A DNA stretch of 64,000 bases from Microbacteriaceae bacterium (GCA_965660355.1 CBFHZN010000003.1:40211-104210); one strand, 5' to 3'; shown: positions 26,187 to 47,061, counted from the stretch's first letter. Numbers and translations: made by a program. Notes: generated by a model from the letters alone, not told the origin.

Positions 26187-26860
26187 TATTGTTCAGTTAA
26201 AATTCTTTTTATATCTTGTAGGTAACTTTTTGTGATTTCTATAGGTGAATTTATATCGTATGAACCTGGGTTTCCACCAAATAGGGTTGCTGTTTCATTC
26301 TTTGCATTTGAGATTAAAGGTGTAATTTCATTTAAAAGCTTTTCTATATCCTCTATACTTTGCAATCTTTGTTTTTGAAAATCATTCATTTCACTTAAAA
26401 CCTCATCCTCCCATAAGTCTATTTTATCAAAGGATTTGGGTTTAGTTTTTGGGATGTCTTTGTATCCTAATTTATAATAGTATTTCTTAGCACCCTTTTT
26501 ACTATATGCTTTAGGTGTTGCGTATTGTGCACCTTTCCCAGAGGAAATAGAAGCACCTCCTTGGGAAGTAGAAGATGCTTCATCAATTTCCCCATATTTT
26601 TTTAATAATCTTGAGTATTTATTTCTTAAAGTTTTAGCTATTTTTAATAATTCCTCTGATTGGCTAGTTTGGACTCTTCTTTGTACTTTTTCTAATTGAG
26701 TAACTACATCATTAATATCTTTATATAATCTTTGAAGGTCAGGTTTATACTCTACTGCCCATGTAGTAGAATTAGTTATAGGATCAAGTTTGGTTTGTTT
26801 TGTTATAAAATCCCTTGCTTCTGCAATTGTTGAAAAAATATTTTCTTTAATTAGAGCCAT
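26186..26860 (-). CDS. Hypothetical head-module protein
   Basis: 224 aa, start/stop overlap with its neighbours. N-terminus MALIKEN. Confidence 0.5.
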   Translation of the reverse strand: MALIKENIFSTIAEARDFITKQTKLDPITNSTTWAVEYKPDLQRLYKDINDVVTQLEKVQRRVQTSQSEELLKIAKTLRNKYSRLLKKYGEIDEASSTSQGGASISSGKGAQYATPKAYSKKGAKKYYYKLGYKDIPKTKPKSFDKIDLWEDEVLSEMNDFQKQRLQSIEDIEKLLNEITPLISNAKNETATLFGGNPGSYDINSPIEITKSYLQDIKRILTEQ

Positions 26861-31957: not shown

Positions 31958-33019
31958 CTATACTTCTCTACCAGCTGTCCTTTTTAAATCATCAAGCATA
32001 GATTTTGGTAATTTGTATTCATCTTTTGCTTTCTTTAAATATGCATCAACTACAGCTTTATTATCACTATATTTTTTAATGAATTTCAACCCTGCATTGA
32101 ATAGTTTCTTTTTATCCTCGGGGGTTGATCCTAATGCTTTAGAGGTTGCATCTTTTTCTAAAGATGCTAGGGCTTCTTTATCTTCATCATCCAATTTTGG
32201 GGATGGAGTAGATTTTACGGGTTTTGTTTCAGTTTTTTTTGGAGATGCTTTTTGAGTAGGTTTTGATTTGGAATTACCACCAGTTGATGGTCTACCTCTT
32301 TTTCCTAATTTTCTTTCTCCTTTAGTTAAAGAAATGAATTTGTTTAATTGGTTATCGTGTAGAGTTTGATCTCCAAGAGCAGATACAACTCCACTATCAG
32401 ATTTAATTTTTTTCTTAAGGGCTAATCCTTCTAAATCAGAATTATCATTAATTACTTTTTCAATTGAGGATTTTAAGTCACCGGCAATTTTAGCCATTTC
32501 ATTTAATCCTAATGCTTTTTTAGCATATCTTTGGGTTTGAGGACCTCCTAAAGAAGGGGTATATGGTCTTCCACCATCTAAAAATGCGGTATATGAAGAT
32601 AAATCAAATTCTGCTCCTGCTTTATTAGCTAGGGTTCTTAACACTTTTTGTGCTTCAGGACTTTCATATGCATCCTCTTGTGCTGCTACAGCAGCATCAA
32701 AATCCTCTAAAGCTTTTACAATATGAGGTTTTACCTCAAATTCTCTACCTTTAATGGTAATTTCATCTTGTTTTCTAGCTTTGGCACTTAATAAAAATGA
32801 AGCTACTGTATTAGCATCTTGCTTTAAATCTGGGTATGATTTAGTAATTGCAGCAATTGCCTTTTTAGCTGCTCCTGATACAGTACCAAATACTGGGGTT
32901 CCTTCTGGGGAGAGGCTTATATCTCTTCCTCCTGATGGGTTATCATCTATAAATACTCTTTCTTTTAATGCAGATGAAATTTCTTCTTGTATAATTTCTA
33001 CTAAACGTTTTTTATTCAT
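31958..33019 (-). CDS. Hypothetical protein with a Lys/Pro/Ser/Thr-rich basic tract near the C-terminus
   Basis: 353 aa. N-terminus MNKKRLVEIIQEEISSALKE (loose family-A leader). Tract ..KRGRPSTGGNSKSKPTQKASPKKTETKPVKSTPSPK... Confidence 0.5.
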   Translation of the reverse strand: MNKKRLVEIIQEEISSALKERVFIDDNPSGGRDISLSPEGTPVFGTVSGAAKKAIAAITKSYPDLKQDANTVASFLLSAKARKQDEITIKGREFEVKPHIVKALEDFDAAVAAQEDAYESPEAQKVLRTLANKAGAEFDLSSYTAFLDGGRPYTPSLGGPQTQRYAKKALGLNEMAKIAGDLKSSIEKVINDNSDLEGLALKKKIKSDSGVVSALGDQTLHDNQLNKFISLTKGERKLGKRGRPSTGGNSKSKPTQKASPKKTETKPVKSTPSPKLDDEDKEALASLEKDATSKALGSTPEDKKKLFNAGLKFIKKYSDNKAVVDAYLKKAKDEYKLPKSMLDDLKRTAGREV

Positions 33020-33034
33020 TTTTATTTACTTTTA

Positions 33035-33044
33035 TTATAAATAT
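33035..33044 (-). promoter_or_regulatory. Conserved 10-mer TTATAAATAT (plus)
   Basis: Exact copy 15 nt upstream of the ATG at 33019. Confidence 0.45.
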
Positions 33045-33574
33045 CATAAAGATAGTACCTGTTGCATTTTATTAATTCTCTCTTCAACTGATCCAGATAA
33101 AGTATGTAAATTCTTTATTTTGTAAGTGTAATCATGAAGTATACGCTTAATAGAATTATCTATGGTTTTACGGTATTCTTCATCATATGCTCTAACTCCA
33201 TTATCCTCTAATTCAACTCCATCAGGGGAAACATAGAATATGTAATCATACTCATTTATTAGGAGGGATGCTAAATTTTCAAAATATTCATTTTGGTAAT
33301 AAGGGATTGATCTAGAAGAAGATGTAAATGCTAGTACATCTATTATAGTCCTATCAGTTATTACATTCTCTTGAATTAACTCACTAGCACGTTCAGCTAA
33401 GAATATTATTTGTCCCTTTAAAGTAGAATCAGTGTTTAGGGGAATACCTAAATCTCTTAAATATTTTGAACGTTCTGTTATAAAGTTGTAATCTTTAAAT
33501 TCGGGTAATTCCTTTAGAGCATTTACCAAAGTAGTTTTCCCTACACTGATTGTGCCACATAATCCTATTTTCAT
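33044..33574 (-). CDS. P-loop kinase, AAA_28 / NadR C-terminal (ribosylnicotinamide kinase)-like
   Basis: 176 aa. Walker A GTISVGKTT, ..ITDRT.. and ..YDYIFYVSPDGVELEDNGVRAYDEEYR.. resemble the NadR kinase domain layout. Confidence 0.45.
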   Translation of the reverse strand: MKIGLCGTISVGKTTLVNALKELPEFKDYNFITERSKYLRDLGIPLNTDSTLKGQIIFLAERASELIQENVITDRTIIDVLAFTSSSRSIPYYQNEYFENLASLLINEYDYIFYVSPDGVELEDNGVRAYDEEYRKTIDNSIKRILHDYTYKIKNLHTLSGSVEERINKMQQVLSL

Positions 33575-33587
33575 AATTTATTTTACT

Positions 33588-33845
33588 TTAATAATTTGTT
33601 AAATTTTTTAAAACATATATAAGATCTTTAGCTTCATCTTTTAATAATTTTAAATATTTTGAAGCATTCTCTCCCCCATATTCTCCTATACTAGAAATAT
33701 TTTTAATTAAAATGTAACATGCTTCTTTTATATCTAAAAAACCACTATCTAAATTATCCCAATCGATTTGATTTAATAAAGATTCTATAGTTTTAATATA
33801 ATTAGAAGCTAATACTTCAACAAGTAATTTAGATATTCTTTCCAT
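33588..33845 (-). CDS. Hypothetical protein
   Basis: 85 aa ORF, helical composition. Confidence 0.45.
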   Translation of the reverse strand: MERISKLLVEVLASNYIKTIESLLNQIDWDNLDSGFLDIKEACYILIKNISSIGEYGGENASKYLKLLKDEAKDLIYVLKNLTNY

Positions 33846-33954
33846 GTTTCTTTAGTGTGTTTTTGGCTTTTTTAATAGCTTGACGGATGAATGAAATATC
33901 TTGATCAATCTGTTTTATTTCAGACTCTGTAAGTTGTTTTTTATCTTTCCCCAT
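33829..33954 (-). CDS. Possible small ORF (41 aa, MGKDKKQLTESEIKQIDQDISFIRQAIKKAKNTLKKHGKNI)
   Basis: Hand-translated. Fills the gap between two genes and overlaps the next start by 17 nt. Below the track length cut-off. Confidence 0.3.
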   Translation of the reverse strand: MGKDKKQLTESEIKQIDQDISFIRQAIKKAKNTLKKHGKNI

Positions 33955-33959
33955 ATTAG

Positions 33960-35258
33960 TTAATTTTTATTTAAAACTCCTTCAGCTACATAAACACCAT
34001 GCGAACCACTAACAGTTATACCCCTTGCACTTAAAGCATCTCCTACAAAATGTACGTTAGGAAAATTTATTAAACTAAGATCTTTATAATTTACTTTTAC
34101 CTCGGGTGATAGGTATTTTACCTCTGGTATATATATTCCCCAATCATCTTTAAGTGTTGGGAATACTTTTTTCATATCCTCAATGAAATCCTCTACATAT
34201 TCGAAATAACCACCCATTGTTTCTCTAACCATATCTAGGTTATCTATTTGATAAGATGTTACATCATTCCCCTCAGATGTAGTAGAGGGTTTACGAGATG
34301 GGCTATAATATAAACCAGTACCCTCTAATTGTAATTTACTTACTACATCACGTGACCATTTAAATGGATCTTCAATACCATTTATTTCCATTAAAATACC
34401 AAAATTAGTCATATTATTTCGGTATGCTTCATCTTTTTTAGCATGTCCATTATATGAATGATCTCCATATGTTTCCTCTACAGCAACATAAGCGGCATTA
34501 TTGTTTGTACAGAATGAACGTAACGAAACACCTTTATCTTCGAATTTTCTATATAATTTGAAATCATAGCTAATATCAATTAGTTTTTGGAAGTGATGTT
34601 GTGGTGCTTCGAATCTACATCCAATTTGTACTGATTTTGGTTCATCTGGGAGTTTGTAATCTTGGGCTAATTGTTGGGCAAAATCAATTCCTGATTTTCC
34701 TACGGCAAATATTAGGGTATCATAGGGAAATCTAAGTTTAATGTTATCTGTTTCAACTAACTTTTGATTAAAATGAATATCTGTTACTTTAGTTTCCCAT
34801 TTAAAATTAACCCCTTTAGATACTAGATAATCATACCAATTTTTACCAATTTCATGGAGGTAATCTGTACCAACATGCCACACAGGAAACAAACGTAAAC
34901 CAAAGTATGGTTTAATAAAATCTGGTTCCGCAACTGGATTTGAACATTGTACTTCTTCTGGTTTGGGGTGGAAACGTTTAAAATTTGTAATAACCTGGTC
35001 CATCAATTCCATGGCTTTTTCTTCACCGGTATATTTAGATAAATGACCACCAATAGCTGTGTGGTATGTTAATTTACCATCACTCCATCCTCCTGCTCCT
35101 AGCATACCTGTCATTACTTCCTCAGGTAACCTGTTATATGGATCTTTACCCATATCAATTATTGTTATGAGTTCTCCAGGGTAATCATTGTCTACAAGTT
35201 TAGTTGCAGCGTTAATACCGGCTACTCCTGCTCCTACAATTACTATTTTTTTATCCAT
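33960..35258 (-). CDS. FAD-dependent oxidoreductase (COG2509-like)
   Basis: 432 aa. N-terminal Rossmann motif IVIVGAGVAGINAA and GAGGWSDGKL, characteristic of this dehydrogenase group. Confidence 0.7.
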   Translation of the reverse strand: MDKKIVIVGAGVAGINAATKLVDNDYPGELITIIDMGKDPYNRLPEEVMTGMLGAGGWSDGKLTYHTAIGGHLSKYTGEEKAMELMDQVITNFKRFHPKPEEVQCSNPVAEPDFIKPYFGLRLFPVWHVGTDYLHEIGKNWYDYLVSKGVNFKWETKVTDIHFNQKLVETDNIKLRFPYDTLIFAVGKSGIDFAQQLAQDYKLPDEPKSVQIGCRFEAPQHHFQKLIDISYDFKLYRKFEDKGVSLRSFCTNNNAAYVAVEETYGDHSYNGHAKKDEAYRNNMTNFGILMEINGIEDPFKWSRDVVSKLQLEGTGLYYSPSRKPSTTSEGNDVTSYQIDNLDMVRETMGGYFEYVEDFIEDMKKVFPTLKDDWGIYIPEVKYLSPEVKVNYKDLSLINFPNVHFVGDALSARGITVSGSHGVYVAEGVLNKN

Positions 35259-35290
35259 TTATTTAATTTAATTTTTATGTTATAATATAC

Positions 35291-35323
35291 GAAAATAAAA
35301 AAGCGTCTCCAAATAAGAGACGC
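35291..35323 (-). terminator. Rho-independent terminator
   Basis: Minus strand reads GCGTCTC-TTATTTG-GAGACGC followed by TTTTTTATTTT. Confidence 0.7.
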
Positions 35324-35358
35324 CACAGCTGCCATAAAATTATAAACTCTTTCGAGTC

Positions 35359-35377
35359 CCTAGGCTATGAATCTAGG
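35359..35377 (-). repeat. Hairpin motif copy 1: CCTAG-GCTATGAAT-CTAGG (plus)
   Basis: 5 bp stem and 9 nt loop. The loop is identical to the copy at 35765..35785 and the stem differs by compensatory changes. Confidence 0.6.
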
Positions 35378-35400
35378 TATATATTAGTTTATTTTAATTT

Positions 35401-35727
35401 TTAAATTGAATCTCCATCACTAAAGTAATAGAAACTCATTTCTGAACGCATAGCATTTTCTAATTCTTTGTCAGTCCTTTGTTCAACATCTTCAATATAT
35501 TGTTCAAATTCACCCCAACCCTCATCATCATTAATAAATTGTTCAGCATCAACCTCTTCATTATTAAATTGGGAAAGGTAATTAAGGGCTTTTTGTTTAT
35601 CAATATAATAAAAATTATATTCTTCATCACTTTCTTCTTCATCTTTAACAACATATTTGTTATTAATATTGTTTTCTTCAAATAATCTACCTTCAGCTAA
35701 ATATTTTTTTAAGTCAAAATTATCCAT
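35401..35727 (-). CDS. Acidic hypothetical protein with family-B leader (MDNFDLKKYLAEG)
   Basis: 108 aa ORF. The alternative-frame ORF 35460..35681 inside it is low complexity and I rejected it. Confidence 0.6.
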   Translation of the reverse strand: MDNFDLKKYLAEGRLFEENNINNKYVVKDEEESDEEYNFYYIDKQKALNYLSQFNNEEVDAEQFINDDEGWGEFEQYIEDVEQRTDKELENAMRSEMSFYYFSDGDSI

Positions 35728-35764
35728 ATATTTTTATTTTAAGTGTTTAATGTTTATTTTTATC

Positions 35765-35785
35765 ACCCAGGCTATGAATCTGGGT
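35765..35785 (-). repeat. Hairpin motif copy 2: (A)CCCAG-GCTATGAAT-CTGGG(T) (plus)
   Basis: Same 9 nt loop as copy 1. Stem covaries (T-A to C-G), and one extra A-T pair is possible. Confidence 0.6.
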
Positions 35786-35801
35786 TGTTTGTGTGTTGTT
35801 T

Positions 35802-36284
35802 TTAGTCTCCGGTGTATGTTGCTCCCATACTACCTTTGGATTTTCTAGGGAATACCCCCCCAGGGATGGTTTGGGAGGGGATTTTTTGATTTATTATTTT
35901 AATAAGCTTTACATTAAGGGATTGGGCTTCTTCTCTTGTTAAATCTTCCAATCTGTCTCTTTCTATTCTTGAGAGTTCAAGACTTACTACTTTATCTAAT
36001 TCTTTCTCAGGGTGTTTTTTTATAAGATTTTTAATAGCATTGAGGTGAGAAAGACGAGACGTATCAACCTCTTTTAAATCAACTGATTGGTTTTTAAATT
36101 GATTGTAGTTAAGTTTTATAATTTTTTGGGTTTTTGGGTTTTTTAGAGTTATAATGAATTCGTCTTCATCAATAACTACATAACGAGTACCTTTATATAG
36201 AACTACATCACCGGGTTGGGGAGATCCCCTTAATGCTTTTTTAATTTCCTCTTTAATGAGTTGTTTTAAATCTGATTTTTTCAT
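35802..36284 (-). CDS. Hypothetical protein with family-A leader (MKKSDLKQLIKEEI)
   Basis: 160 aa ORF. Confidence 0.6.
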   Translation of the reverse strand: MKKSDLKQLIKEEIKKALRGSPQPGDVVLYKGTRYVVIDEDEFIITLKNPKTQKIIKLNYNQFKNQSVDLKEVDTSRLSHLNAIKNLIKKHPEKELDKVVSLELSRIERDRLEDLTREEAQSLNVKLIKIINQKIPSQTIPGGVFPRKSKGSMGATYTGD

Positions 36285-36757
36285 ATTGTTGGCTTAACTA
36301 TTATAGTATTTTTTTCTAAAATATCCTCTAATGTATATCTTGTTTTATCTAAAAATTTATTTAATGTTTGTCTATATAATCTATGGCGTAAATTATCATT
36401 AGCTTCTAAATAAAATTCTGTAAAATATTCTGTGTAGTATTTTAAGATTTCGTTTAAGAAAACATAGATAAACGTATTAAATATTCTTTCATCATATGTT
36501 GGGGGTTTATCATATCGTTTATTTCCTTTATCATCTACCCACCCAAATTTAATTTCAGCTATTGTGTCTCCTTTATATAAAGATTGGTTTAAAATTATAA
36601 AATGTTGAATATCTTTTCTATCTTTAAACACCCATAAATTTTTGCGGGTATGTTCAAAATCATAATGGTTATCAGGATTTACAGATTCAATCATTAACTC
36701 GTATGAGGAAGTTATAAGTTCCTCTTTAATGAGTTGTTTTAAATCTTGTTTTTTCAT
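36281..36757 (-). CDS. Hypothetical protein with family-A leader (MKKQDLKQLIKEEL)
   Basis: 158 aa ORF. Its first 39 nt match those of 35802..36284 at 37 positions, but the rest is unrelated. Confidence 0.6.
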   Translation of the reverse strand: MKKQDLKQLIKEELITSSYELMIESVNPDNHYDFEHTRKNLWVFKDRKDIQHFIILNQSLYKGDTIAEIKFGWVDDKGNKRYDKPPTYDERIFNTFIYVFLNEILKYYTEYFTEFYLEANDNLRHRLYRQTLNKFLDKTRYTLEDILEKNTIIVKPTI

Positions 36758-37044
36758 TCTTCTATCTTTATCTTGAGTGTATTATTTCCTTTTATTACAC
36801 GATGCCACTCTTTTGCGTTTATAAATATACAAACTCCCTCTTTGAGTTCAACTGGTAGTTCATTATCTCTTTGAAAATACCAACCTTTACCTTCTAAAAC
36901 TTCTACTGTTCGATTTTCTAAATCCCGATGCCAAAGTAGCTCAATTGGATCTATATTATCACTAAACTCGCGTATAATATATTTATCTGTGATCTCTATG
37001 TCTGTGTACGGATTACTCACTTTCTTTACGTTCTTGCCACTCAT
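36754..37044 (-). CDS. Hypothetical small beta-rich protein (cupin-like is a weak guess)
   Basis: 96 aa ORF. ..LWHRDLENRTVEVLEGKGWYFQ..WHRVIKG.. Confidence 0.4.
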   Translation of the reverse strand: MSGKNVKKVSNPYTDIEITDKYIIREFSDNIDPIELLWHRDLENRTVEVLEGKGWYFQRDNELPVELKEGVCIFINAKEWHRVIKGNNTLKIKIEE

Positions 37045-37447
37045 AAGATACTTTATCTGTATCTATAGGACCGCCTGCGGCCCAAGTATAGCATGTTCTT
37101 TCACTATGACATTTAAAATTATGCATCCAACAATATCCTAAGTAACCACCATCTTGAACTGAACCAGGCATACACTCTAACATTCTTTCTGAGATATCAA
37201 ATGCAACACAATTCTTACATTTAGATTCTTTAGCTACCTCTACTGTTGTATTCCAATGATCTGCTGCTAGTTCCCAATATCCTTTATCTGTTAAATTAAG
37301 GGGACCATATTTAATATAGTCTGCTTTAATAGCTGAGTTTCTATTTCTAGTGTTTAACTTTAAATCTTGGGTAGGTAAAGGGCAAGCCATTGCTGCCTCA
37401 TATAATTTACCTTCTTTTAAATATTTTTTTAAATCAAATGTATCCAT
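37013..37447 (-). CDS. Cys-rich hypothetical protein with family-B leader (MDTFDLKKYLKEG)
   Basis: The track ORF runs to 37555, but M37 (37447) abuts the upstream stop (37449) and restores the leader shared with two other genes. Cys pattern C..C, CWMH.F.C, TC. Confidence 0.55.
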   Translation of the reverse strand: MDTFDLKKYLKEGKLYEAAMACPLPTQDLKLNTRNRNSAIKADYIKYGPLNLTDKGYWELAADHWNTTVEVAKESKCKNCVAFDISERMLECMPGSVQDGGYLGYCWMHNFKCHSERTCYTWAAGGPIDTDKVSYEWQERKESE

Positions 37448-37448
37448 G

Positions 37449-38129
37449 TTATTTTGTTTTTCCCCATTTAGTACCTTTACCTTTATCTTTACATTTTGCT
37501 GCTGTAGGACGACATGAAGGATATTTTGAACGTTTTTCTCCTTTTTCTCTACCACATGCTTTATATCCTGTTATTTTACCATCTTTTCTAATAGGTGCAT
37601 TACAATCAACCCATCCACCTTTTTTACCAGGTGTTCCTGAGCGTTTGAACCATTTATGGAGTGATTCATCTTCTTGAATTATTTCCTTAATGATATCTTT
37701 TAATTTAGCATATCCCGAGCCATAAGGAGCAGCTTTACCTGCTTGAGGATCATCTACTTCTTTAATATTTTTCCAAATATCTCCTTTTCTACATCTAACT
37801 ACAGCACCTGATTTGTAAGCGGAAGGTTTATCGAATTTACGATCAGCAATGCGTAAGCATCTGTCACGTTTTTTCTTTTTTTCTGTGAGGTTTTCTTTGG
37901 TTTTTATAAAATTTAGTATTTTTATAATATCATCCAACTGTTTTAAAAAGATTTCAAATTCTTGAGGATTGTCTTTTATATATTCTGCTCCTAAATCAAT
38001 AAAACCATTTATAGCATTATCAACAATTAATGTATATCCTCTAAAAAGACTAGGTTTTATTTCTTTTATATCTAGTAAAAGAGAATCTACTTTGTTAGAA
38101 AGAGGTTTTATTTTATCAAAGTTGTTCAT
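37449..38129 (-). CDS. Basic Cys-containing hypothetical protein
   Basis: 226 aa. ..RCLRIADRKFDKPSAYKSGAVVRCRKG.. and a basic C-terminus ..GGWVDCNAPI..YKACGRE..YPSCRPTAAKCKDKGKG. Confidence 0.55.
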   Translation of the reverse strand: MNNFDKIKPLSNKVDSLLLDIKEIKPSLFRGYTLIVDNAINGFIDLGAEYIKDNPQEFEIFLKQLDDIIKILNFIKTKENLTEKKKKRDRCLRIADRKFDKPSAYKSGAVVRCRKGDIWKNIKEVDDPQAGKAAPYGSGYAKLKDIIKEIIQEDESLHKWFKRSGTPGKKGGWVDCNAPIRKDGKITGYKACGREKGEKRSKYPSCRPTAAKCKDKGKGTKWGKTK

Positions 38130-38274
38130 CTTCTATATTAAAGTCTTTTTTCATTTTTTCTATTAAATTAGAAAGATTTTGATTAATTTTAGAAGCTTTT
38201 TGATTTTTTTCCTCTAAAATTATTTGTTTAACAATTTCCTCTTTAATAAGTTGTTTTAATTCTAAGTGTTTCAT
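38116..38274 (-). CDS. Small ORF (52 aa) with family-A leader (MKHLELKQLIKEEI)
   Basis: Hand-translated. Stop overlaps the next gene start by 14 nt. Below the track length cut-off. Confidence 0.45.
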   Translation of the reverse strand: MKHLELKQLIKEEIVKQIILEEKNQKASKINQNLSNLIEKMKKDFNIEDEQL

Positions 38275-38286
38275 GTTGTTATTTTT

Positions 38287-39399
38287 CTACCAAAATCCGC
38301 TAAATGAGCTTTTTAAACCTAATAATTTTGCATATCGAGGTAATCTACATGACCAATAAGAAGGTTTTGTGCGGTCGGTTTTCTCAGAGCATTTATGTCT
38401 TGCTGCAAATGCTTTTCTTGCTTTAGGATCGTTTATTTTTGCTCTTAAACCACCTGAACCAAAACGTACTGTTTTGATTTTTTTGGTTTTAGGGTCACGA
38501 ACATAAACCTTATATGCTTTACCACCTGATGATGAACGCATTGGTTTTCCAATTGGTTTTTTCTTTTCCTCGTTTAAGGGTTCTTTAATATATACCTCTA
38601 TTTCCATAGTTTCATTATTGAAACCCATTTCATATTTTGAGGTATCTAGACTAGAGTATATTAAAGCTCTAAATAAACGGTAACGAGCGGCGTTTAAAGC
38701 TTTAAAGTTAAATGAGCTATATTTTGGTAATATTACTTTAACAAGTATCATACCAAATGTGTTCATCACTTTTTCATCTTCGTATTTACGAGGAATGTCA
38801 TCCGTTGTCCATTCTTGGGATGTTGGATTAAACCATAATAATTTAACACTATTCCCTTTTAAAAACATTAATTTACGTTTAATGCCATGTTTGTCAGTAA
38901 AAATAAATTCATTTCCTAATTCATTAGATTTTATATCATCTAACTTGTATGAATTTTCTATATTTACTGATTCGTATATTTTACCATATACCTGGATGTC
39001 TTCTAAAATTGGCTCATATGGATTTTCATCCTCTATAGGCAAATCTAAAGGTACTTTTTTACCTTCATACATCCCATAATTACCTAAATCTGTCTCCTCT
39101 AGAATTTGCTTATCATCTTCATTCACATGGATAATTTCACGTAAATATAATGAGCGAGCTTCAGCCCATAAATTTAGAAAAGATTGTGAACCATAACGGA
39201 ATGTGTTTCCAGTGAGTGGGAGTTGATTATCCACGTGATAACGCAGATTCTCCGATAAAATTTGTTTAGGAGCTACACTTTCATTTAATACTACTCCAGG
39301 GTTACCTACATCCCCACAACTGTGGCAACCACAGTTACAATCTTTCTTTGTGGGAGGAGTAGATAATACCTCTTTTATTAGTTTTTTTAAACGTTCCAT
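38287..39399 (-). CDS. Hypothetical protein with N-terminal Cys cluster and basic C-terminal domain
   Basis: 370 aa. ..DCNCGCHSCGD.. and C-terminal ..KAYKVYVRDPKTKKIKTVRFGSGG..ARHKC..PSYWSCR... Confidence 0.55.
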   Translation of the reverse strand: MERLKKLIKEVLSTPPTKKDCNCGCHSCGDVGNPGVVLNESVAPKQILSENLRYHVDNQLPLTGNTFRYGSQSFLNLWAEARSLYLREIIHVNEDDKQILEETDLGNYGMYEGKKVPLDLPIEDENPYEPILEDIQVYGKIYESVNIENSYKLDDIKSNELGNEFIFTDKHGIKRKLMFLKGNSVKLLWFNPTSQEWTTDDIPRKYEDEKVMNTFGMILVKVILPKYSSFNFKALNAARYRLFRALIYSSLDTSKYEMGFNNETMEIEVYIKEPLNEEKKKPIGKPMRSSSGGKAYKVYVRDPKTKKIKTVRFGSGGLRAKINDPKARKAFAARHKCSEKTDRTKPSYWSCRLPRYAKLLGLKSSFSGFW

Positions 39400-39400
39400 G

Positions 39401-40855
39401 TTATGATATTTTTATAAATACTGAGCTGAATTTAGTAACTGAGGAAGCATATCTGATTATATCGGATACTATTTCGTTTTGGAGGTTGGGGGATTCATTC
39501 TCTATTATATGAGCTACTAGTGTGGATAGATATTTTGAAACTAACCAGTTAAGATCTTTCTCCTCAATTAAAACTTCCATTTCCCCTTGGGTTGTAGGTT
39601 TAACAATTTGGGAGTAGTTTTGTGTAAATTCTTCTATAAATTTAGGATCTTTGGATTTTATTTTATCTTGTACTTCTTTAGCGGAAGGAAGGAGTGGGAC
39701 ATTATTAAGTTTAAATATGTCATTTATAGCCCCATGCCCTATTTTACCATGAGATGCAGTTTTTCCTGCTATCTCACCAGCAAAGTTTGTAGCAAAATTG
39801 AATGTTCTGAATGTTATCTTTCCATCATCATAAACTATAACTGTATTGTTATTTGTTTCACGTGAATCAGATCCTTCATACTTATACCCTTTAGCATCCT
39901 GTTCATCTATATTATAAACACCTATAGTTGGGGATGTTGATGTTTTCTTTAAAGATACTCCTAATAGCTTATTATCAGCATATAAATTAGCTAATGTGGA
40001 ATTTAATTCCCCAATTTCTGTAGGGAAAGACATATTCAATATGGATTTATCTACCATCCAAATATCAGCGGGGTTCCATTTATCTGATTGAAAGGATAAC
40101 TTTTGGGATTTTTTAGCTTCTTTAAAGGCCTCATATATTCCTTTTACAAAATCAGATCCTCTATGTTGTTGGAAATTAGGGTTTTTATAATTTGAGTATA
40201 AAATATTAGCCGAAGCTATAAAAGTATCTAACCAAGAGGTTTGGGAAGTTATGAATTCTTTACACTCCCCTAATGTTGAAGATACATCACATAATTGATA
40301 AGCGGTTTCTATATTTTCGGGGGTTAAATCTTCTGGAGAGATTTTACCTTTAATAATTTCATAAGTAATTGCATTAACTACACTTTGAGAAGATTCCTGT
40401 ATATCTGTGTTTTTACTTCCCCCTCCCATTCCATATCCACTTCCAAACTCTTTTGTTTTCTCAAAATTACTTAGAGAATATGAATTCCCATCTTTATCAA
40501 ATAATACTTTCTTCCCCCTAGCAAATATAGAATAGTCTTGATTTTGGAGGGATTCAATAGCTTCTTTGGATTTTTCAGGGTCTAAAATAATAGACTCCCC
40601 AGTAGTTAACTCAAATTCTTCCCCACTTTTTAATTTTTCTAAAAATCGTTGCCCTCTATCCTCATATTTTCCTGATAGTTCATGTCTTGATGGAAAAGGT
40701 TTTTGTAGGTCTGCTGTTGATAATTTCACTTCGTTTATCCCTATTTTAACTAATTCATTTTCTAATATTAAAACATCCTTAGGATCTTCCATATTAGGAT
40801 ATCCTTTAGGGAATTTATAAGCAATCCCATTTAAGAATTTAGTTAAAATATCCAT
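39401..40855 (-). CDS. Hypothetical protein; possible PD-(D/E)XK-type nuclease core (weak)
   Basis: 484 aa. ..KWNPADIWMVDK...(about 30 aa)...LLGVSLKK.. resembles a D...(S/E)xK nuclease motif. Confidence 0.3.
   Translation of the reverse strand: MDILTKFLNGIAYKFPKGYPNMEDPKDVLILENELVKIGINEVKLSTADLQKPFPSRHELSGKYEDRGQRFLEKLKSGEEFELTTGESIILDPEKSKEAIESLQNQDYSIFARGKKVLFDKDGNSYSLSNFEKTKEFGSGYGMGGGSKNTDIQESSQSVVNAITYEIIKGKISPEDLTPENIETAYQLCDVSSTLGECKEFITSQTSWLDTFIASANILYSNYKNPNFQQHRGSDFVKGIYEAFKEAKKSQKLSFQSDKWNPADIWMVDKSILNMSFPTEIGELNSTLANLYADNKLLGVSLKKTSTSPTIGVYNIDEQDAKGYKYEGSDSRETNNNTVIVYDDGKITFRTFNFATNFAGEIAGKTASHGKIGHGAINDIFKLNNVPLLPSAKEVQDKIKSKDPKFIEEFTQNYSQIVKPTTQGEMEVLIEEKDLNWLVSKYLSTLVAHIIENESPNLQNEIVSDIIRYASSVTKFSSVFIKIS
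39412..39421 (-). promoter_or_regulatory. Near-exact 10-mer (TTATAAATAC)
   Basis: 12 nt upstream of the ATG at 39399, inside the 3' end of the upstream gene. Confidence 0.35.
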
Positions 40856-40857
40856 TA

Positions 40858-41322
40858 TTAATCTTCTGTTGGTGGTTCCTCTGTTGGTGATTCCTCTGTT
40901 GGTGGAGTATCCTCGGTTGGAGGGGAGTCACCAAAATCACCATCTACTTCTTCATCACTTCTTACCCCATATCTTAAAATATTAGAGAGAGCTTTAGCTG
41001 CTTTTTCTTCCTCAGGTAAGTTTTTCAAATAATATTTTTTACCTTCAATTTGAGCTATCCAACTTCTTTCACCATATATTAAATAAAAATTTTGATCATT
41101 TTTAAAATTGATACGGAATGTAGTTGGGCGTGGAGCTACCCAATCGATTGTTGAGAGGAAGAAATCAAAATCTTTAGTTAATAGATCAACTAATATTTTC
41201 TTTAGTTCTGGGAATTTAGTTAGCTCATCATATTGTATTGCTTCTTGGGAGGTTATTCTTCTATTTGAATATACTTGTTTAGTTAGTACTCGTATTTTAT
41301 TTTTAAGTTGATTAAGATCCAT
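40858..41322 (-). CDS. Hypothetical protein with C-terminal PPTE(D/E) repeats
   Basis: 154 aa ORF, start/stop coupled with its neighbours. Confidence 0.55.
   Translation of the reverse strand: MDLNQLKNKIRVLTKQVYSNRRITSQEAIQYDELTKFPELKKILVDLLTKDFDFFLSTIDWVAPRPTTFRINFKNDQNFYLIYGERSWIAQIEGKKYYLKNLPEEEKAAKALSNILRYGVRSDEEVDGDFGDSPPTEDTPPTEESPTEEPPTED
40862..40923 (-). repeat. Tandem repeat of about 15 nt encoding PPTEDTPPTEESPTEEPPTED
   Basis: tc(t/c)tctgttggtg(g/a)(t/a) repeated 3 times plus a diverged copy. Confidence 0.7.
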
Positions 41323-42284
41323 TATCTATTTTCTTTAAGTTTAGCTAAAACAGCTTCTTTAATTTTATCTTTAAAGGACATACCTTTTTTTATAGATTTT
41401 TTTGGAGTCATTTCTTCATCAATAACATCTTCTTGAGTAGCTACATTAACCATAGCATCTATTTGAGGTTCTTTTATTTCAAAATCAAGATAATGTTTGG
41501 CTGAAACTAGCATGTCTTTAGCTTTGGTGATTTTTGCTTGCCACCAATGTGGGAAATCAACCTCACCATCCATTTTATCAAATTTGTCTAGCATTTTATA
41601 AAGTTCCATGGCATATTTCCCAATACGATATAGGTCACCTTTTAACATATGTGGTTCATCATCAGTATGGCCTATATCAAGATCTTCAGATAAAGACTCA
41701 TTAAATTGGCCCTCAAATCTAGCGTTAATTCCTTTTTTAATGAAAATAGTTTCTAATTCATTTTCAAGTCTATCTATAGTAGATTGATCTCCTTCTTCAG
41801 GAAAGAACCAATAGTCTTCTTGAGGGTTATAGATACCGTAAAAACCGCTTTCTTCAATAGCTTGGTCAATCAAATCATTATCTTTTTTTGATTTACCTAC
41901 TACTATTAAACCAGATCCTTCAAAATCACTACTTGAATTATATGATTCATTAGTTTTCATAGATTTTTCAATAGCTGCTCCCCTTTTTTTCTCATATGAA
42001 GAAAGTTTACCATCTTTATTTAAATCTGCTTTTTTAGGGTTTTGGAGAGCATCTTTAATCATTTCTTTTAGTTTTTCAGATTTACCCATTTTTTCTTTAG
42101 TTTTTTTTCCAGATGATTGTTTTTTAACTTGATTCACGGCAGTACCATAAGCTACTGCCTCTGCGTTACTGCCGTGTTTCTTTACAAGTTTGTCTCTACG
42201 TTTTGAGTCAGTAACGATGGCTAAAAAATTATCATAAATTTTTTTTGATTCCTCAGAATTGAATGCCTCGTTAATTTCCTCCAT
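41322..42284 (-). CDS. Hypothetical protein (EF-hand-like [12 protein letters not shown] segment)
   Basis: 320 aa ORF, ATG overlapping the upstream stop. Confidence 0.5.
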
Positions 42285-42286
42285 TT

Positions 42287-42457
42287 TTACTTTTTTACTT
42301 CAGATAAAGATGTCTTCTTATATTCAGCTGCTAACTTTTTAATTTCATTAGCTGCTCTACGAGCTCGCCCAGCTGCTGCTTTAGATGTTTTTGCATTTTC
42401 TGTTTCTAAAATAGCTACTTGCTCTGTAATTAGTTCAAAAATTTCTGTTGTTGTCAT
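42287..42457 (-). CDS. Small basic helical protein (56 aa, [56 protein letters not shown])
   Basis: Hand-translated and frame checked (171 nt). Fills the gap, 2 nt from the next ATG. Confidence 0.5.
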
Positions 42458-42475
42458 AAATTTAATTTTTATTTG

Positions 42476-42495
42476 TTTATTTATTTATTTATTTA
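42476..42495. repeat. (TTTA)5 microsatellite
   Basis: Read directly. Overlaps the stop codon of 42493..43017. Confidence 0.8.
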
Positions 42496-43017
42496 TTCTT
42501 CTCCTCCAATAAAATCACTAACAAAGAATTTGATAGTATTTGATATTTGAGTAGTAAGCTTTTCATTTCCACTTGCTTTAGATAACTTTAAAGATGTCAT
42601 TAAAGAATCCATTATTTCACTATCATCACCTTCCATATCTCCCCCAATAGCCTCTATCTCACTATCTTCATCAGCTGGGGGTTCTGGTTCTTCTTCTGAT
42701 TCATCTTCAGTTTCTTCCTCATCCTCTTCGGCTTCAAAAAGGTCTAATTCATCATCAAATAGATCAGATTCTTCTTCAGTATCTCCTAAAGTCATGACAT
42801 CATCAAACATGTCCTCAGGATTTTCCATTCCCATGTCAATACCTTCTTCATCATAATCTTGATAATCTTCTAATTCTTTTAAAATCATTTCTTTAACTTT
42901 ATCACGAAGATTACCTTCATTTAAGGTATTTGGTTTTTTAGAAGTGGTAAATGGGTTATAATTTTCTACTACTTTATTTTCTTTTAGGTATTTTTTTAAA
43001 TCGAAATTGTCTTTCAT
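42493..43017 (-). CDS. Hyperacidic hypothetical protein with family-B leader (MKDNFDLKKYLKEN)
   Basis: 174 aa ORF with D/E-rich centre. Confidence 0.6.
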   Translation of the reverse strand: MKDNFDLKKYLKENKVVENYNPFTTSKKPNTLNEGNLRDKVKEMILKELEDYQDYDEEGIDMGMENPEDMFDDVMTLGDTEEESDLFDDELDLFEAEEDEEETEDESEEEPEPPADEDSEIEAIGGDMEGDDSEIMDSLMTSLKLSKASGNEKLTTQISNTIKFFVSDFIGGEE

Positions 43018-43031
43018 TTTTTATTATTTTG

Positions 43032-43045: not shown

Positions 43046-43624
43046 TTATTTTTGTTTCTTCAAACCTTCCATATATTTAATACCTTCTTCTAGGGACTTA
43101 TTAAATCTTTCACGATCTATCCCCCCAACCCATTTCTGGATGTCTCCTGCTTCTGTGATGTGACCATTATTGCTTTCGTTAAGGGCATTTTCCATAAATA
43201 ATTTATAATCCTCTATATGGCTGTCTATTTCTTTATTATGTAATTCATTTACATGTTCTTCCCACTTCCCACTAATTTTTAATCGTGTTTCGGTTTTAGC
43301 TCTACAATCCAAACATTCTCCAAAAGATTTATAATAGAAGGGGTCTAACTGTTTATCCATTAGAGTTTTACAATTTGGACAAAATAAAGGCATGGAGGTT
43401 TTTTTAAATTTATCCAGTTTGGTTATATTTTCTTTTATACCATTTTTTATAGTCCAGGTTTTACCATCTTGTTCCCAAACATCCCCCTCACAATAATCTT
43501 TTTTTTCTTCTCCTTTATATCCTACACTTTGGGTTGTTTTACTTCCATTTTTACCCTTAATGATGTTTCGCATACGCTCAACATCACGTTTTTGAAATTC
43601 TTTTTTTAAAATGTTGTCTTTCAT
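43046..43624 (-). CDS. Hypothetical zinc-ribbon protein
   Basis: 192 aa. CPNC...(16 aa)...CLDC. Confidence 0.5.
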   Translation of the reverse strand: MKDNILKKEFQKRDVERMRNIIKGKNGSKTTQSVGYKGEEKKDYCEGDVWEQDGKTWTIKNGIKENITKLDKFKKTSMPLFCPNCKTLMDKQLDPFYYKSFGECLDCRAKTETRLKISGKWEEHVNELHNKEIDSHIEDYKLFMENALNESNNGHITEAGDIQKWVGGIDRERFNKSLEEGIKYMEGLKKQK

Positions 43625-44187
43625 ACCCCTAATTTTTGTAATTGTTTAATAGTATCATCAGCACTTGTATGGAGTATTCCTATACCCCCTTTTAAATTCC
43701 AACCATCTATTGTTGGTTTTCTATCATCTATTAGGATCCTACCTTTTTTTGATAGATCTTTTTTAAATTTAGATGCTTTAAATTTTAATTCTCTCATATT
43801 ATCTAAACGTTTAACCCATTCAGTTTTACCTTGTTTAGATTCATTATGAGATAATTTGTATTTAACATCAGCAGGCAAATCGTGGTTAACTGAGGGGGCT
43901 GTTAAAATGTATGGGTTGTATGGTGAAATATAATCCCATAGTTGTTTACCGTCAGGCATCCATTCTAATCTCTCCCAATACTGTTTTTCGGATATACCCT
44001 TTTCGGTTAAACTATTTCTAAATAAGTCCCAAAAGTGTTGACTGCCTTGTCTATCAGCGTGATGAGTTTTTATCCCTGTTAATTCCTCATATCCCTTATC
44101 AAAATCAACTAATACTCCATCTAAATCACAAAATATTGTATATTGTGAATCTTGAAATTCTTTAAGCAAATCAACTAGTTTTATCAT
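43621..44187 (-). CDS. HAD-superfamily 5'(3')-deoxyribonucleotidase (NT5C-like)
   Basis: 188 aa. The DxDGV motif FCDLDGVLVDF near the N-terminus, and size typical of NT5C. Confidence 0.6.
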   Translation of the reverse strand: MIKLVDLLKEFQDSQYTIFCDLDGVLVDFDKGYEELTGIKTHHADRQGSQHFWDLFRNSLTEKGISEKQYWERLEWMPDGKQLWDYISPYNPYILTAPSVNHDLPADVKYKLSHNESKQGKTEWVKRLDNMRELKFKASKFKKDLSKKGRILIDDRKPTIDGWNLKGGIGILHTSADDTIKQLQKLGV

Positions 44188-44191
44188 AATA

Positions 44192-46309
44192 TTAAAATGT
44201 GGGTAAATTTAATACTTTTAATCGGGTTTTCCAAAGATCTAGTATTTCTTCTTTTTCTTGGGGGGTAATATCTTGGGAATTTAAGTATGTATTTATTACA
44301 TCTTTAAATGGTACTTTCTCTTTTTTGGCTCTAAAATACATACCTTGTAAATTAGCATCTATTTCTTTCTCTAATTTGAAGTATTGGTCAGGTGATAATA
44401 ATTTTGAATTTATAAGTTGACGAATTAAAATATCATCCTCCATAAATTTATTAGGTTTTAAGTTGGAACCCTCTCCTTGAGTTAAATGTTCTATCTCATG
44501 ACGGATTACATCTTTAAGACCCATTGAAACTTCACTCCATGATTCTGGGAGGGTATTTGGGTCTATTTCAAATCGTACTTGTATCCAATCTTCTTCATTA
44601 TCTGCACCTCCATCAATATCTAATTTTTGTGGGAGATTTGGAGTAAAAGTTAAATAAGCATCCACCTCTACTTCTATATCTCTTGTTGAATATTCACCTT
44701 TGTATATTGATTCTTGTCTTTCTCCACTATCAAAATCACTTTTCCACTTTTTAAAGATGTCTGAGGATATAGTGTTTGATATTTTATCGTAGCGTCCTTC
44801 CATTAGGGTATCTTCCTCAAATAATTCTCTTATAAATTGGTTTATCCCAAATGGATCTTTTTGTTTTTTTTCTTGGAAATTATCGGTCCAATTTCTAAAT
44901 GTCATTGTACCCTTTAAATTAGCTTCTTCCTCAAGTTTATTTAAATGGTCATCTTCTTGTGTGTTTGTAGTAGATATTTCTCCTAATCTTCCTTCTATAT
45001 TTTGAATATGGTGGATCATTTCATGTGAAAAACTTCTAACTACATCTTTTGGATGTCTTCCTTCAGTATACAATACTATTTCTTTGGTGTTGGGGTTATA
45101 GTATGCGGTTTTTCCTAAAAAATTCCCTGCATTTTCTTTATCTCCATGTTTAAAAACAACTTTAGGTAAAGGTTTTATATTCATGTCTTTAGAAAGCATG
45201 TATTTAGTTAAATCCTTTATTTGCTGTTTATAATCTATATAATCTGAATAGGTAGTATTTTCATTTAATCCTATTAGTGTGTAATTAGGCTCATTTGGGA
45301 TTGTTTTAGGTTTTAATATGTTGTTTATTTTTATTGTATCTCCCTCTATAGAAATGTCAAAATCTGAGGGGGAGATATTACTATAATAATTTTTATAGTA
45401 TTCTATCCTATTAAAGTTAGTAGTTTCTTCTAATAACTCATCCTTAAATTTTGAAGGAAGTGTTGAAAATTTTCCTTTAGATATTTTATTAGTTAACCAC
45501 CCCAATAAAGTAGTACCTGAGGCTCCTAATATTGGAAATGTTACTGCTATTCCACTAGATTTGAGAATGTCATTAAAATTTCTTTTAAGCTTTTCTTTTT
45601 CCTCATCTGTCATATTTTGTTTTTGAAGATATTTTAAAGCTAAAGATTTAAACCCTCTAAAATCATTTTTTTGAGAAGTAAAAGCATTTTTAAATTTTTG
45701 GGTTAGGACTTTTAACTTATTAGAGTTGATTTCATTTAAAGTACCAGATGTTAAAATGCTCCAAATTTTTAACTTATCATCCTCAGATACCTCAGCGGGT
45801 AAAAAGTTTTTAAAATCATTATAATCCCCATTCATTAATGATAAACGAGCACCTGTTCCACTTACTTTAAAATCACTATCAAAAATTATAGGTTTAAAAT
45901 TATCATATTTTCCTTTTAAAGAATCAAATCTTTTTATATCCTCTAAATCTTGTTCCCCTCTTACCCCTACTACCGGGAAATAAAAGTTATTAGGGTTGTT
46001 TTTAATTATTGAGTTAACATCACCTATTGGGGATGGTTTTTCTGAAATTTTTATTTTTACTTTTGATGGAAGGTATTTTTTATATATCTCCCATATTTTA
46101 AAGCTTTTTTCCTTGCTAATTCCATCTCTTATTCCATGTCCTATTAAAACTATTACCTCATCTAACTCATCTCTTTTTGCAATCTCTAAAGTTATATAGA
46201 AATGTCCTAGAGTAGGTGGTTTAAACCCCCCAGGTATAAGTGCTATATTTTTTGGGGAATTATCTTCTTCCAAAAAAGGTTGTATGAGTTCTTGGATGAA
46301 TTTACCCAT
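44192..46309 (-). CDS. Multidomain protein: N-terminal cytidylyl/adenylyltransferase-fold (NMNAT-like) domain plus a C-terminal region with two HExxH motifs
   Basis: 705 aa. GGFKPPTLGHF ((H/T)xGH) and VSGTGAR (ISSTxxR-like) in the first 160 aa or so. HEMIHH and HEIEH lie downstream. A hydrophobic segment GIAVTFPILGASGTTLLGWL sits between them. Confidence 0.5.
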   Translation of the reverse strand: MGKFIQELIQPFLEEDNSPKNIALIPGGFKPPTLGHFYITLEIAKRDELDEVIVLIGHGIRDGISKEKSFKIWEIYKKYLPSKVKIKISEKPSPIGDVNSIIKNNPNNFYFPVVGVRGEQDLEDIKRFDSLKGKYDNFKPIIFDSDFKVSGTGARLSLMNGDYNDFKNFLPAEVSEDDKLKIWSILTSGTLNEINSNKLKVLTQKFKNAFTSQKNDFRGFKSLALKYLQKQNMTDEEKEKLKRNFNDILKSSGIAVTFPILGASGTTLLGWLTNKISKGKFSTLPSKFKDELLEETTNFNRIEYYKNYYSNISPSDFDISIEGDTIKINNILKPKTIPNEPNYTLIGLNENTTYSDYIDYKQQIKDLTKYMLSKDMNIKPLPKVVFKHGDKENAGNFLGKTAYYNPNTKEIVLYTEGRHPKDVVRSFSHEMIHHIQNIEGRLGEISTTNTQEDDHLNKLEEEANLKGTMTFRNWTDNFQEKKQKDPFGINQFIRELFEEDTLMEGRYDKISNTISSDIFKKWKSDFDSGERQESIYKGEYSTRDIEVEVDAYLTFTPNLPQKLDIDGGADNEEDWIQVRFEIDPNTLPESWSEVSMGLKDVIRHEIEHLTQGEGSNLKPNKFMEDDILIRQLINSKLLSPDQYFKLEKEIDANLQGMYFRAKKEKVPFKDVINTYLNSQDITPQEKEEILDLWKTRLKVLNLPTF

Positions 46310-47061
46310 TATATAAATTGTTTTATTTTTAATTTAGCACTATCAATAGTATCAAATTTAGGAAGTTGTTTGATGGATGAAGTTATATCACTTATCAACT
46401 CATCAAATTGTTGTTTTGATTTGGCTTTTTGTTCGGGAGTTTTAGGTTTTCCTTTAGCTTTAGAATCCTCAAGGTATGGACGTAATAATTCTATATTAAA
46501 ATCTTTATTAGCATCTTCTGGGTTGTTGTTTATTAGGATAAAGTTATTACCAAATTCTTTCCTATAAGTTTCAATACTTTTATTAACACCTCTCCATGTG
46601 CGTAGTACAATTGAGGGCATTAAGCTTCTTTCACGATTTTTATTTCGCTCTAAAGATACAAGAGGAGAAACATAAATCATTAACATTAAACATTCATACC
46701 CTAAATCCTCTAATTGTTGTTTTTTCTTTAAAATTGGGTTAGGGGCAGCCCCAGTTCCATCAATTATTATATTATTTCTATCCTCTATTGATTTTTCTAA
46801 CTTAGATTGAGTAACTTTACGAGCTTGGGCTTGTAATTTGGCGGCTTGAGAAAGTTCATCAGGGGTAAAGTCTTTTTGCTTTAACCCAATACCACTAGCT
46901 TTAAGCATTTCCTCATAAGTATCATCAGAATTTATAGTTTGAAAATCTTGTGGTAACAAGAGACGATTCATGTATGATTTTCCACTTCCAGCTGGTCCTG
47001 CTAGAAATATAGCTTTAGGTCCTCCTTGAATTTCATTTAGTATTTTTATTAAGCTTATCAT
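46309..47061 (-). CDS. P-loop NTPase/kinase (AAA_33/zeta-like)
   Basis: 250 aa. Walker A GPAGSGKS and IIIDGTG. Confidence 0.5.
   Translation of the reverse strand: MISLIKILNEIQGGPKAIFLAGPAGSGKSYMNRLLLPQDFQTINSDDTYEEMLKASGIGLKQKDFTPDELSQAAKLQAQARKVTQSKLEKSIEDRNNIIIDGTGAAPNPILKKKQQLEDLGYECLMLMIYVSPLVSLERNKNRERSLMPSIVLRTWRGVNKSIETYRKEFGNNFILINNNPEDANKDFNIELLRPYLEDSKAKGKPKTPEQKAKSKQQFDELISDITSSIKQLPKFDTIDSAKLKIKQFI

Follow-up and report, generated by a model that had tools for sequence, protein, structure and literature searches.

A 64,000-nt stretch of DNA assigned to a Microbacteriaceae bacterium (GCA_965660355.1, CBFHZN010000003.1:40211-104210; the whole stretch is referred to here as the window) encodes a set of otherwise unrelated proteins that begin with nearly the same short peptides, in which [LI]-x-E sites recur at fixed positions. 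The best explanation for these N-terminal leaders, and one that we rate slightly better than even, is that they are T4-type capsid-targeting propeptides that would be clipped by the gp21-type prohead protease encoded in the same window.

The leaders were first described in an earlier note, and every N-terminus quoted there is present where it was placed, on the minus strand. Profile hidden Markov models (HMMs) for two leader classes, A and B, were built from leaders gathered independently in IMG/VR and then run on the window proteins. They recover three A leaders (MDNFDLKKYLxE; E from 7e-16 to 2e-10) and five B leaders (MKKxDLKQLIKEE; E from 2e-12 to 5e-5). A third class, with the 10-residue register M-x-x-Phi-x-x-Phi-[LI]-x-E (Phi, hydrophobic), is found at 33588-33845, 38287-39399, 43621-44187 and 46309-47061, and has the length of the T4 capsid-targeting sequence (CTS). 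The carriers and candidates are listed below; a slash follows the Glu of each site.

42493..43017, minus strand: A-leader protein, 174 aa, very acidic predicted mature part; MKDNFDLKKYLKE/NKVVE/N; HMM E=2.3e-10
35401..35727, minus strand: A-leader protein, 108 aa, acidic; MDNFDLKKYLAE/GRLFE/E; HMM E=6.8e-16
37013..37447, minus strand: A-leader protein, 144 aa, Cys-rich cargo resembling high potential iron-sulfur proteins (HiPIP-like); MDTFDLKKYLKE/GKLYE/AAM-ACP...; HMM E=4.3e-12
35802..36284, minus strand: B-leader protein (B1/B2 pair), 160 aa; MKKSDLKQLIKEE; HMM E=1.6e-12
36281..36757, minus strand: B-leader protein (B1/B2 pair), 158 aa; MKKQDLKQLIKEE; HMM E=4.7e-10
38116..38274, minus strand: B-leader protein, 52 aa; MKHLELKQLIKEE; HMM E=4.8e-9
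2109..2480, minus strand: B-leader protein, 123 aa, in the tail module; MKRNDIKSIIKEE/IKNILKE/D; HMM E=1.2e-7
31958..33019, minus strand: B-like leader protein, 353 aa, Lys-rich tail; MNKKRLVEIIQEE/ISSALKE/R; HMM E=4.5e-5
38287..39399, minus strand: 10-residue-register leader MERLKKLIKE/V, 370 aa, Cys motif; marginal B score, E=0.011
62403..62771, minus strand: marginal B-like N-terminus MKTETFKNLIKKAVKE, 122 aa; B HMM E=0.042
33588..33845, minus strand: 10-residue-register leader candidate MERISKLLVE/V, 85 aa; from the motif register
43621..44187, minus strand: NT5C-like (HAD) enzyme, N-terminal extension MIKLVDLLKE/F before the DxDGV motif
46309..47061, minus strand: Zeta_toxin/AAA_33 kinase, leader MISLIKILNE/IQGGPKA; Pfam AAA_33 begins at residue 18

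Two looser leaders had also been proposed; that of 31958..33019 is recovered by the B model, and that of 38287..39399 scores marginally. The true start of 37013-37447 is taken as the ATG at 37447, not the GTG of the mechanical open reading frame (ORF) 37013-37555, because its orthologues show so. Only 14 residues align between the adjacent B genes 35802-36284 and 36281-36757, 12 of them identical, such that the leader alone is common to the pair. Orthologues of 38116-38274 in two related loci (L178, L205) carry an identical leader. In Flavobacterium phage vB_FspM_immuto (hereafter immuto), the likely counterpart of 62403-62771, similar in N-terminus and position, begins MKLDLLKKLIKEAVKE, and the homologue of 43621-44187 is annotated as a deoxyribonucleotidase. 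A similar 10-residue-register N-terminus is frequent among orthologues of the NMNAT/NadR-like protein at 44192-46309. Searches of PHROGs and Pfam with ten of the window carriers returned essentially nothing.

The motif is concentrated at N-termini. Across the 68 ORFs of the window, [LI]-x-E occurs within the first 16 residues of 27, as compared with 18% of interior 16-residue segments (p=2e-5), and Phi-x-x-Phi-[LI]-x-E within the first 20 residues of 14, as compared with 2% of interior segments (p=1e-10). All but one of the latter (13/14) lie within 31958-47061. Residue 12 is where the first such motif ends in eight proteins, and residue 10 in four, as compared with an expectation of 0.12 per position.

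Searching IMG/VR with a degenerate DNA pattern for M-x-x-FDLKKYL-x-E returned at least 120 loci holding 148 ORFs, and a B-leader pattern returned at least 120 stretches, with 115 new loci and 131 ORFs. At least 266 ORFs with an A or B leader are present in this database, nearly all on contigs of one T4-like lineage: among the loci listed, 110 of 120 for A and 104 of 115 for B have two or more separate genes in common with the window or with immuto. Loci below two shared genes are mostly short fragments, and two outliers encode a family B DNA polymerase. Immuto carries A-type leaders (MENFDLKKFLVENKLTTNSKILKE), with one such gene between replication genes, as well as B-type leaders, including a looser B-like one inside its head module; the immuto gene adjoining the protease has a divergent A-like N-terminus (MENNFDIHKW...) that the A model missed. 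Leader proteins of immuto include those encoded at 103806-104354, 118632-118931, 102294-102869, and 125241-125468. In 596 Gb of bacterial and archaeal genomes the A pattern returned only 10 stretches, of which six come from a single high-G+C deltaproteobacterial enzyme family, two share a 14-kb phage contig syntenic with the window, and two are isolated and unrelated. A tblastn search of phages with a 20-residue leader gave no match, the query being too short and low-complexity to be informative; a literature search for the leader strings found nothing.

These distributions bear on an alternative, close to the generic AT-rich N-terminal helix of the earlier note, namely that AT-rich genomes yield Lys/Glu/Leu/Ile-rich N-terminal helices by chance or composition. 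The frequency of [LI]-x-E in protein interiors lends this account some plausibility. It is contradicted by the strength of the N-terminal enrichment and the sharp peaks of motif ends at residues 10 and 12, by a 15-residue consensus that is near-invariant in more than 130 ORFs, and by the essential absence of the A leader from cellular genomes and from conserved neighbour families of the same phage genomes (33044-33574 and 36754-37044, never with a leader). We consider a compositional origin extremely improbable.

Leader anatomy and selection on the peptide

Residues 1-15 of the A leaders are near-invariant (MDNFDLKKYL[AV]E[GN][KR]L), and the B consensus is MKKSELKQ[IL]I[KR]EE[IV]. Each type has [LI]-x-E sites at residue 12 and again at residue 17/18 or 20. 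A second [LIVM]-x-E is present in 127 of 137 A leaders, ending at residue 17/18 or, in the VENKVTTNSKMLNE variant, at 23/24; it is present in 99 of 115 B leaders, occupying exactly residues 18-20 in 79. The corresponding background in cargo interiors is 19-23%. With the Glu of the site numbered P1, P3 and P1 of the second site are conserved while P2 is filled by a dozen different residues, and column conservation vanishes right past the site. Leaders begin at Met1, and their conservation is over by residue 18-24. Glu12 is fixed partly through the search pattern, and it is at least 90% conserved in an alignment not selected for it.

T4 internal proteins carry propeptides of 10-19 residues, and mutagenesis of the T4 CTS traces targeting mainly to residues 4 and 7 and assigns processing to residues 8 and 10 (review of Black's work, PMC9026906). 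Counted from the scissile Glu, these positions are P7, P4, P3, and P1. They read Y-F-I-E in T4 (from the N-termini of IPII and IPIII, MKTYQEFIAE/A, read directly), L-Y-L-E in the A leader, and L-I/L-I-E in the B leader, and the 10-residue class follows the same pattern; P4-P1 is YLAE in the A leader and FIAE in T4. The earlier observation that the leaders end in [LI]-x-E is thus borne out by conserved sites with a variable P2, arranged as the T4 determinants are. The likeness to the T4 CTS is confined to the pattern and P4-P1, and 10-12 residues are too short a stretch on which to base common descent.

Leader codons vary synonymously, broadly as background codon use with some codons deviating, and the 60 nt upstream contain only the A-richness usual before start codons and no conserved DNA. 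For these two reasons, selection is taken to act on the peptide and not on its DNA. A role at the DNA level has been weighed against this: the 5′ coding stretch of the leader might serve as an A/T-rich translation enhancer in hosts without Shine-Dalgarno sequences, or as a patch of recombination homology, with no role for the peptide. Such a role would suit the A-rich upstream regions and A/T-rich leaders, the nearly identical leader DNA of the adjacent B genes 35802-36284 and 36281-36757, and the position of leader genes in hypervariable regions where leaders are swapped. However, amino acids are fixed while synonymous codons vary; where leader residues change, they do so conservatively (L/F, K/R, I/L/V); the leader classes are alike physico-chemically and not in DNA; and the DNA before the ATG is unconserved. 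We regard this explanation as improbable.

Leader variants agree within genomes. Pairs of leaders from one genome match at position 11 in 31 of 36 cases and at position 13 in 32 of 36, where fractions of 0.45 and 0.46 would be expected, which suggests a shared partner or gene conversion.

Two further classes of N-terminal peptide were rejected. As read from their sequences, the leaders are charged and amphipathic and have no hydrophobic stretch, unlike Sec, Tat, or lipoprotein signal peptides, which are marked by a hydrophobic core, a twin-arginine motif, or a lipobox. Precursors of ribosomally synthesized and post-translationally modified peptides (RiPPs) pair the leader with a short core peptide and are encoded beside modifying enzymes; here, sampled cargos mostly extend about 50-400 residues past the leader and include folded enzymes. 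Among RiPP enzyme families the sole match was Lant_dehydr_N on the scaffold, below cut-off.

Head module and predicted processing

The window has a G+C content of about 31%, with nearly all genes on the minus strand, and a Pfam search shows that it encodes a T4-type head module.

20392-21090: PhoH
21180..22817, minus strand: gp23-type major capsid protein (Pfam Gp23, E=3e-73)
22840..23973, minus strand: acidic scaffold with many [LI]-x-E sites, N-terminus MATNRELLKE/AIAE/A (from sequence and position between protease and major capsid protein)
24166..24798, minus strand: prohead protease of the T4 gp21 type (Peptidase_S77; PF03420, E=5e-26; PDB 5jbl, T4 gp21, E=2e-16)
24798..27707, minus strand: three genes in the portal-protease interval, 26847-27707, 26186-26860 (MALIKE/N), and 24798-26186 (..YLLIKE/G...VFIKE/A)
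27748-29628: gp20-type portal
29640-31238: T4-type large terminase (TerL)

The protease named in the earlier note is present with its catalytic residues in place: GELDHP (His), GVSSRG (Ser), and WDLVSNPS (Asp) align with T4 gp21 at what we take to be its catalytic positions. It is presumed to be the enzyme that processes the leaders. Its own N-terminus reads MEKEFLIE/T (FLIE-8), and T4 gp21 itself has LIE-9 (PMC9026906). Aligned to mature T4 gp23*, the window capsid protein has [LI]-x-E sites where gp23 is cut (ALILE/NQAKQLVTE/ASATN). The scaffold is likewise conserved in immuto and related loci, and docking is presumed to take place on it. The three genes at 24798..27707, which gave no Pfam match, are candidate prohead core proteins; their place matches what we take to be that of T4 genes 67 and 68, and the immuto counterpart in the portal-protease interval also has N-terminal sites of this type (..AIQE/G..HFIAE/A). 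Head-module N-termini (MALIKE, ..YLLIKE, MATNRELLKE) had been listed alongside the leaders in the earlier note; their L-x-E sites are real, and they do not belong to the A or B family.

These features suggest how capsid targeting could proceed. A 10-12-residue amphipathic peptide, with hydrophobic P7, P4, and P3 and Glu at P1, would dock its protein onto the scaffold core during prohead assembly. The gp21-type protease would then cut after the Glu of the first site and at the second [LI]-x-E, 5-12 residues on; the small leader fragments would exit the head, and the mature protein would be retained and ejected with the DNA into the next host. The label is modular, with at least three interchangeable classes (A, B, 10-residue) on hundreds of unrelated accessory proteins that turn over quickly.

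A nonamer, TATTTATAA, is over-represented in the window (22 matches as compared with 6.9 expected, 16 of them on the coding strand) and occurs 11-35 nt upstream of the genes for tail tube, sheath, TerL, a head protein, PhoH, a large structural protein, and five leader-bearing proteins. The minus-strand copies before leader genes are at 2484-2492, 33035-33043, 39412-39420, 43032-43040, and 62777-62785; further minus-strand copies are at 3073-3081, 6633-6641, 20380-20388, 21105-21113, 27727-27735, 31254-31262, and 54999-55007. Distances to the start are 23 nt (42493-43017), -12 (2109-2480), -24 (31958-33019), and -14 (62403-62771). The nonamer contains TATTTATA, the reverse complement of what we take to be the T4 late -10 box, TATAAATA, and is probably a phage late-promoter element; those five leader genes would therefore belong to the structural expression class.

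In megablast, neither the head module nor the leader region 31958-43017 matched any GenBank phage. Comparison of capsid proteins puts immuto nearest among isolates (57% identity; 160 kb), ahead of Microcystis phage Mel-JY01 and Rhodothermus phage RM378. The hosts of this lineage are likely marine Bacteroidota, the phylum being judged by that nearest isolate.

Cargo repertoire, leader swapping, and possible alternative partners

By BLASTP, the 266 cargos sampled group into 170 clusters. This bears out the earlier suggestions that leaders head unrelated proteins and that the cargo set is much larger than that of T4. A Pfam domain was detected in only about 3 of 150 cluster representatives (Zeta_toxin/AAA_33 kinase, ECF sigma factor, DUF6576), and the median mature cargo is about 100 residues. 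The cargo had been characterized as small and acidic or Cys-rich. The set is not limited to such proteins: A cargos are mostly acidic (66% with an isoelectric point, pI, below 5), B cargos are more often basic (37% with pI above 9), and enzymes are included.

Leaders are exchanged between orthologous proteins. Six clusters hold both A- and B-led members. The HiPIP-like family represented by 37013-37447 has 1333 homologues, and its orthologues carry an A leader, a B leader, a third 'W' type (MKLLIENWRKFIQEAKELV-), or no leader; where a leader is present it always meets the conserved domain just before the invariant Cys22-Pro23. Orthologues of the kinase (46309-47061) carry MI[GSK]LxxLLKE, and one (L046) has an A leader at the same junction. 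The 10-residue leader of the NT5C-like enzyme (43621-44187) is likewise kept in its orthologues. Orthologues of 38287-39399 keep ..L[IK]xLI[KR]E/VL or begin directly at the Cys motif. Among 281 homologues of 2109-2480, nearly all of the 120 orthologues listed have the two-site B leader, with a variable P2 at the second site. Leader genes are variable cassettes between conserved backbone genes at 31.9-47 kb, and the block lies between the head module and a same-strand tail/baseplate module. The leaders are peptide-level modules confined to one gp21-bearing lineage and swapped between orthologous cargos.

The HiPIP-like domain has invariant Cys at 22, 77, 80, 106, 113, and 119, and others annotate it as 'high potential iron-sulfur protein'; an AlphaFold2 model of the cargo was unusable (mean predicted local distance difference test score, 50). 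The neighbours of leaderless homologues were run against PHROGs and Pfam. In unrelated phages these homologues adjoin a capsid maturation protease, and one adjoins a protein with a weak, sub-threshold match to LPD23 (polyvalent-protein). These neighbours weakly support a head-associated role for the domain. In Actinomycetia phage DSL-LC01 (L252), the domain forms the C-terminal part of a 244-residue protein flanked by a 3290-residue protein and the capsid maturation protease. A separate related phage encodes a 199-residue ECF-type sigma factor (L089:8509-9105, plus strand; Sigma70 regions 2 and 4) with a long A leader, which, if packaged, would be an injected sigma factor.

Several observations weigh against capsid targeting. 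Leader-type N-termini occur on an NT5C-like hydrolase, a zeta-like kinase, an NMNAT-like protein, the Fe-S-type protein, and, in the relative, the sigma factor; such proteins are not typical capsid cargo, and a function in the cytoplasm would suit them equally well or better. Some leader genes sit inside replication or chaperonin (GroEL/GroES) gene neighbourhoods, and there are 8-13 carriers per genome in 64 kb, far above the T4 precedent. In Mel-JY01, the closest outgroup examined, the protease is present, but the 41 kb surrounding the head module contains neither A nor B leaders. All carriers belong to one clade, for which reason the co-occurrence of leaders and protease is a single phylogenetic observation and counts once. 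A literature search found no virion proteome of this lineage, immuto included.

These points lend themselves to a different explanation, in which the leader is an interaction tag for some other common intracellular partner, such as a host factor, a multi-enzyme complex, a compartment for replication or assembly, or the phage chaperonin. Packaging would then never occur, and the L-x-E end would belong to an amphipathic helix. The metabolic enzymes, kinase, Fe-S-type protein, and sigma factor among the carriers speak for such a partner, as do leader genes beside replication and GroEL/GroES genes, and the within-genome agreement of leader variants suits any shared partner. However, a tag of this kind leaves unexplained why conservation should stop precisely at a second [LI]-x-E with a free P2, and why the leaders match the experimentally mapped positions of the T4 CTS. 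No candidate partner was identified, and we know of no such tag system. We consider the interaction tag unlikely, though clearly less so than a DNA-level role, and continue to favour capsid-targeting propeptides.

Other features of the window stand apart from this question. Within the otherwise soluble leader-gene block, 31246-31671 and 31595-31954 encode two small proteins with hydrophobic N-terminal segments just upstream of the terminase gene, and a similar pair precedes the terminase gene of Mel-JY01 (L251:9942-10683). A 432-residue FAD/NAD(P)-binding oxidoreductase (33960-35258; Pyr_redox_2 N-terminus), near the Fe-S-type cargo, ranks with the best-conserved backbone genes in the variable region and is found in 31 of the 120 A-leader loci listed. 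The tandem paralogues 3099-4832 and 4868-6619 are 53% identical, begin MANLSSSPGVTLNE and MAETILSPGVVLNE, and are both homologous to an immuto gene annotated as tail sheath. Three small paralogues of 61-67 residues (..FPDGQIMDE..; 7559-7762, 14130-14315, 15797-15991) lie among large fibre-like genes and may be fibre assembly or adaptor proteins.

Significance and comparison with known systems

Proteins carried in the capsid act first in infection, and those of T4 include inhibitors of host restriction. To our knowledge almost none are known beyond a few model phages, because they have had no recognisable sequence feature. A broader version of the capsid-targeting reading, which we hold tentatively and at somewhat less than even, is that a T4-like clade, probably infecting Bacteroidota, loads its capsid with a huge and changing repertoire by means of a portable, two-site cleavable label in at least three interchangeable versions, and that these proteins are injected with the DNA. 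Besides hundreds of ORFan families, the repertoire would include enzymes and a kinase, as well as an Fe-S-type protein and even a sigma factor.

If this is true, one short motif marks hundreds of candidate injected proteins in abundant aquatic phages, and ORFans of the 'viral dark matter' would become a defined functional class. The T4 CTS principle would be ancient and expandable. The leader would offer a handle for listing injected effectors, including anti-defence proteins, from metagenomes, and a ready tag with which such phages could be engineered to package foreign proteins. If instead the leaders address a cytoplasmic partner, they would represent an undescribed organising principle for phage accessory proteins.

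Giant phages (phiKZ, 201phi2-1, SPN3US) offer one point of comparison. Many of their head proteins are cut after Glu, as is predicted here, with multi-site propeptides and gp21-related proteases (PMC5694885, PMC9026906). The diverged paralogues gp53 and gp54 of SPN3US begin with the same 15 residues, which hold sites at residues 12 and 15, and multiple propeptide sites in this phage have been explained as aiding fragment clearance (PMC5694885). Unlike the present phage, which is ordinary-sized and T4-like, the giant phages use an (S/A/G)-x-E motif, and their propeptides are mostly protein-specific and longer than 100 residues. The leaders described here have L/I at P3, span 12-24 residues, and are common to several proteins, which sets them outside the giant-phage class. 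We know of no family-wide portable leader described in giant phages.

Polymorphic effectors (LXG, MIX, and phage polyvalent proteins) follow the same logic, in which one N-terminal address serves many interchangeable payloads in an arms race. No homology between these systems and the leaders was found; the address in polymorphic effectors is a folded domain of at least 100 residues, based on secretion systems, as opposed to the 12-20-residue, predicted cleavable peptide here.

The closest parallel is the CTS of T4 (on IPI, IPII, IPIII, and Alt, removed by gp21). T-even internal proteins are diverse and have the CTS alone in common (PMC3012670). In both systems a 10-20-residue N-terminal peptide with hydrophobic P7, P4, and P3, Glu at P1, and an (L/I)-x-E end heads unrelated, fast-evolving accessory proteins encoded in variable regions, and the genome also encodes an acidic scaffold, a gp23-type capsid protein, and an S77 protease. 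The two systems part in leader sequence (MDNFDLKKYLAE and MKKSELKQIIKEE here, MKTYQEFIAE in T4), and the regular second site and the three or more interchangeable leader classes within one genome also set the present leaders apart. The scale differs as well: there are 8-13 carriers per 64 kb, and the clade as sampled has at least 170 cargo families, as compared with a handful in T4. Enzymes are among the carriers, and the likely host phylum is Bacteroidota; packaging and cleavage in the present system are predicted. The leaders match the T4 CTS in every feature that can be read from sequence, homology excepted, and would be expected to function as it does.

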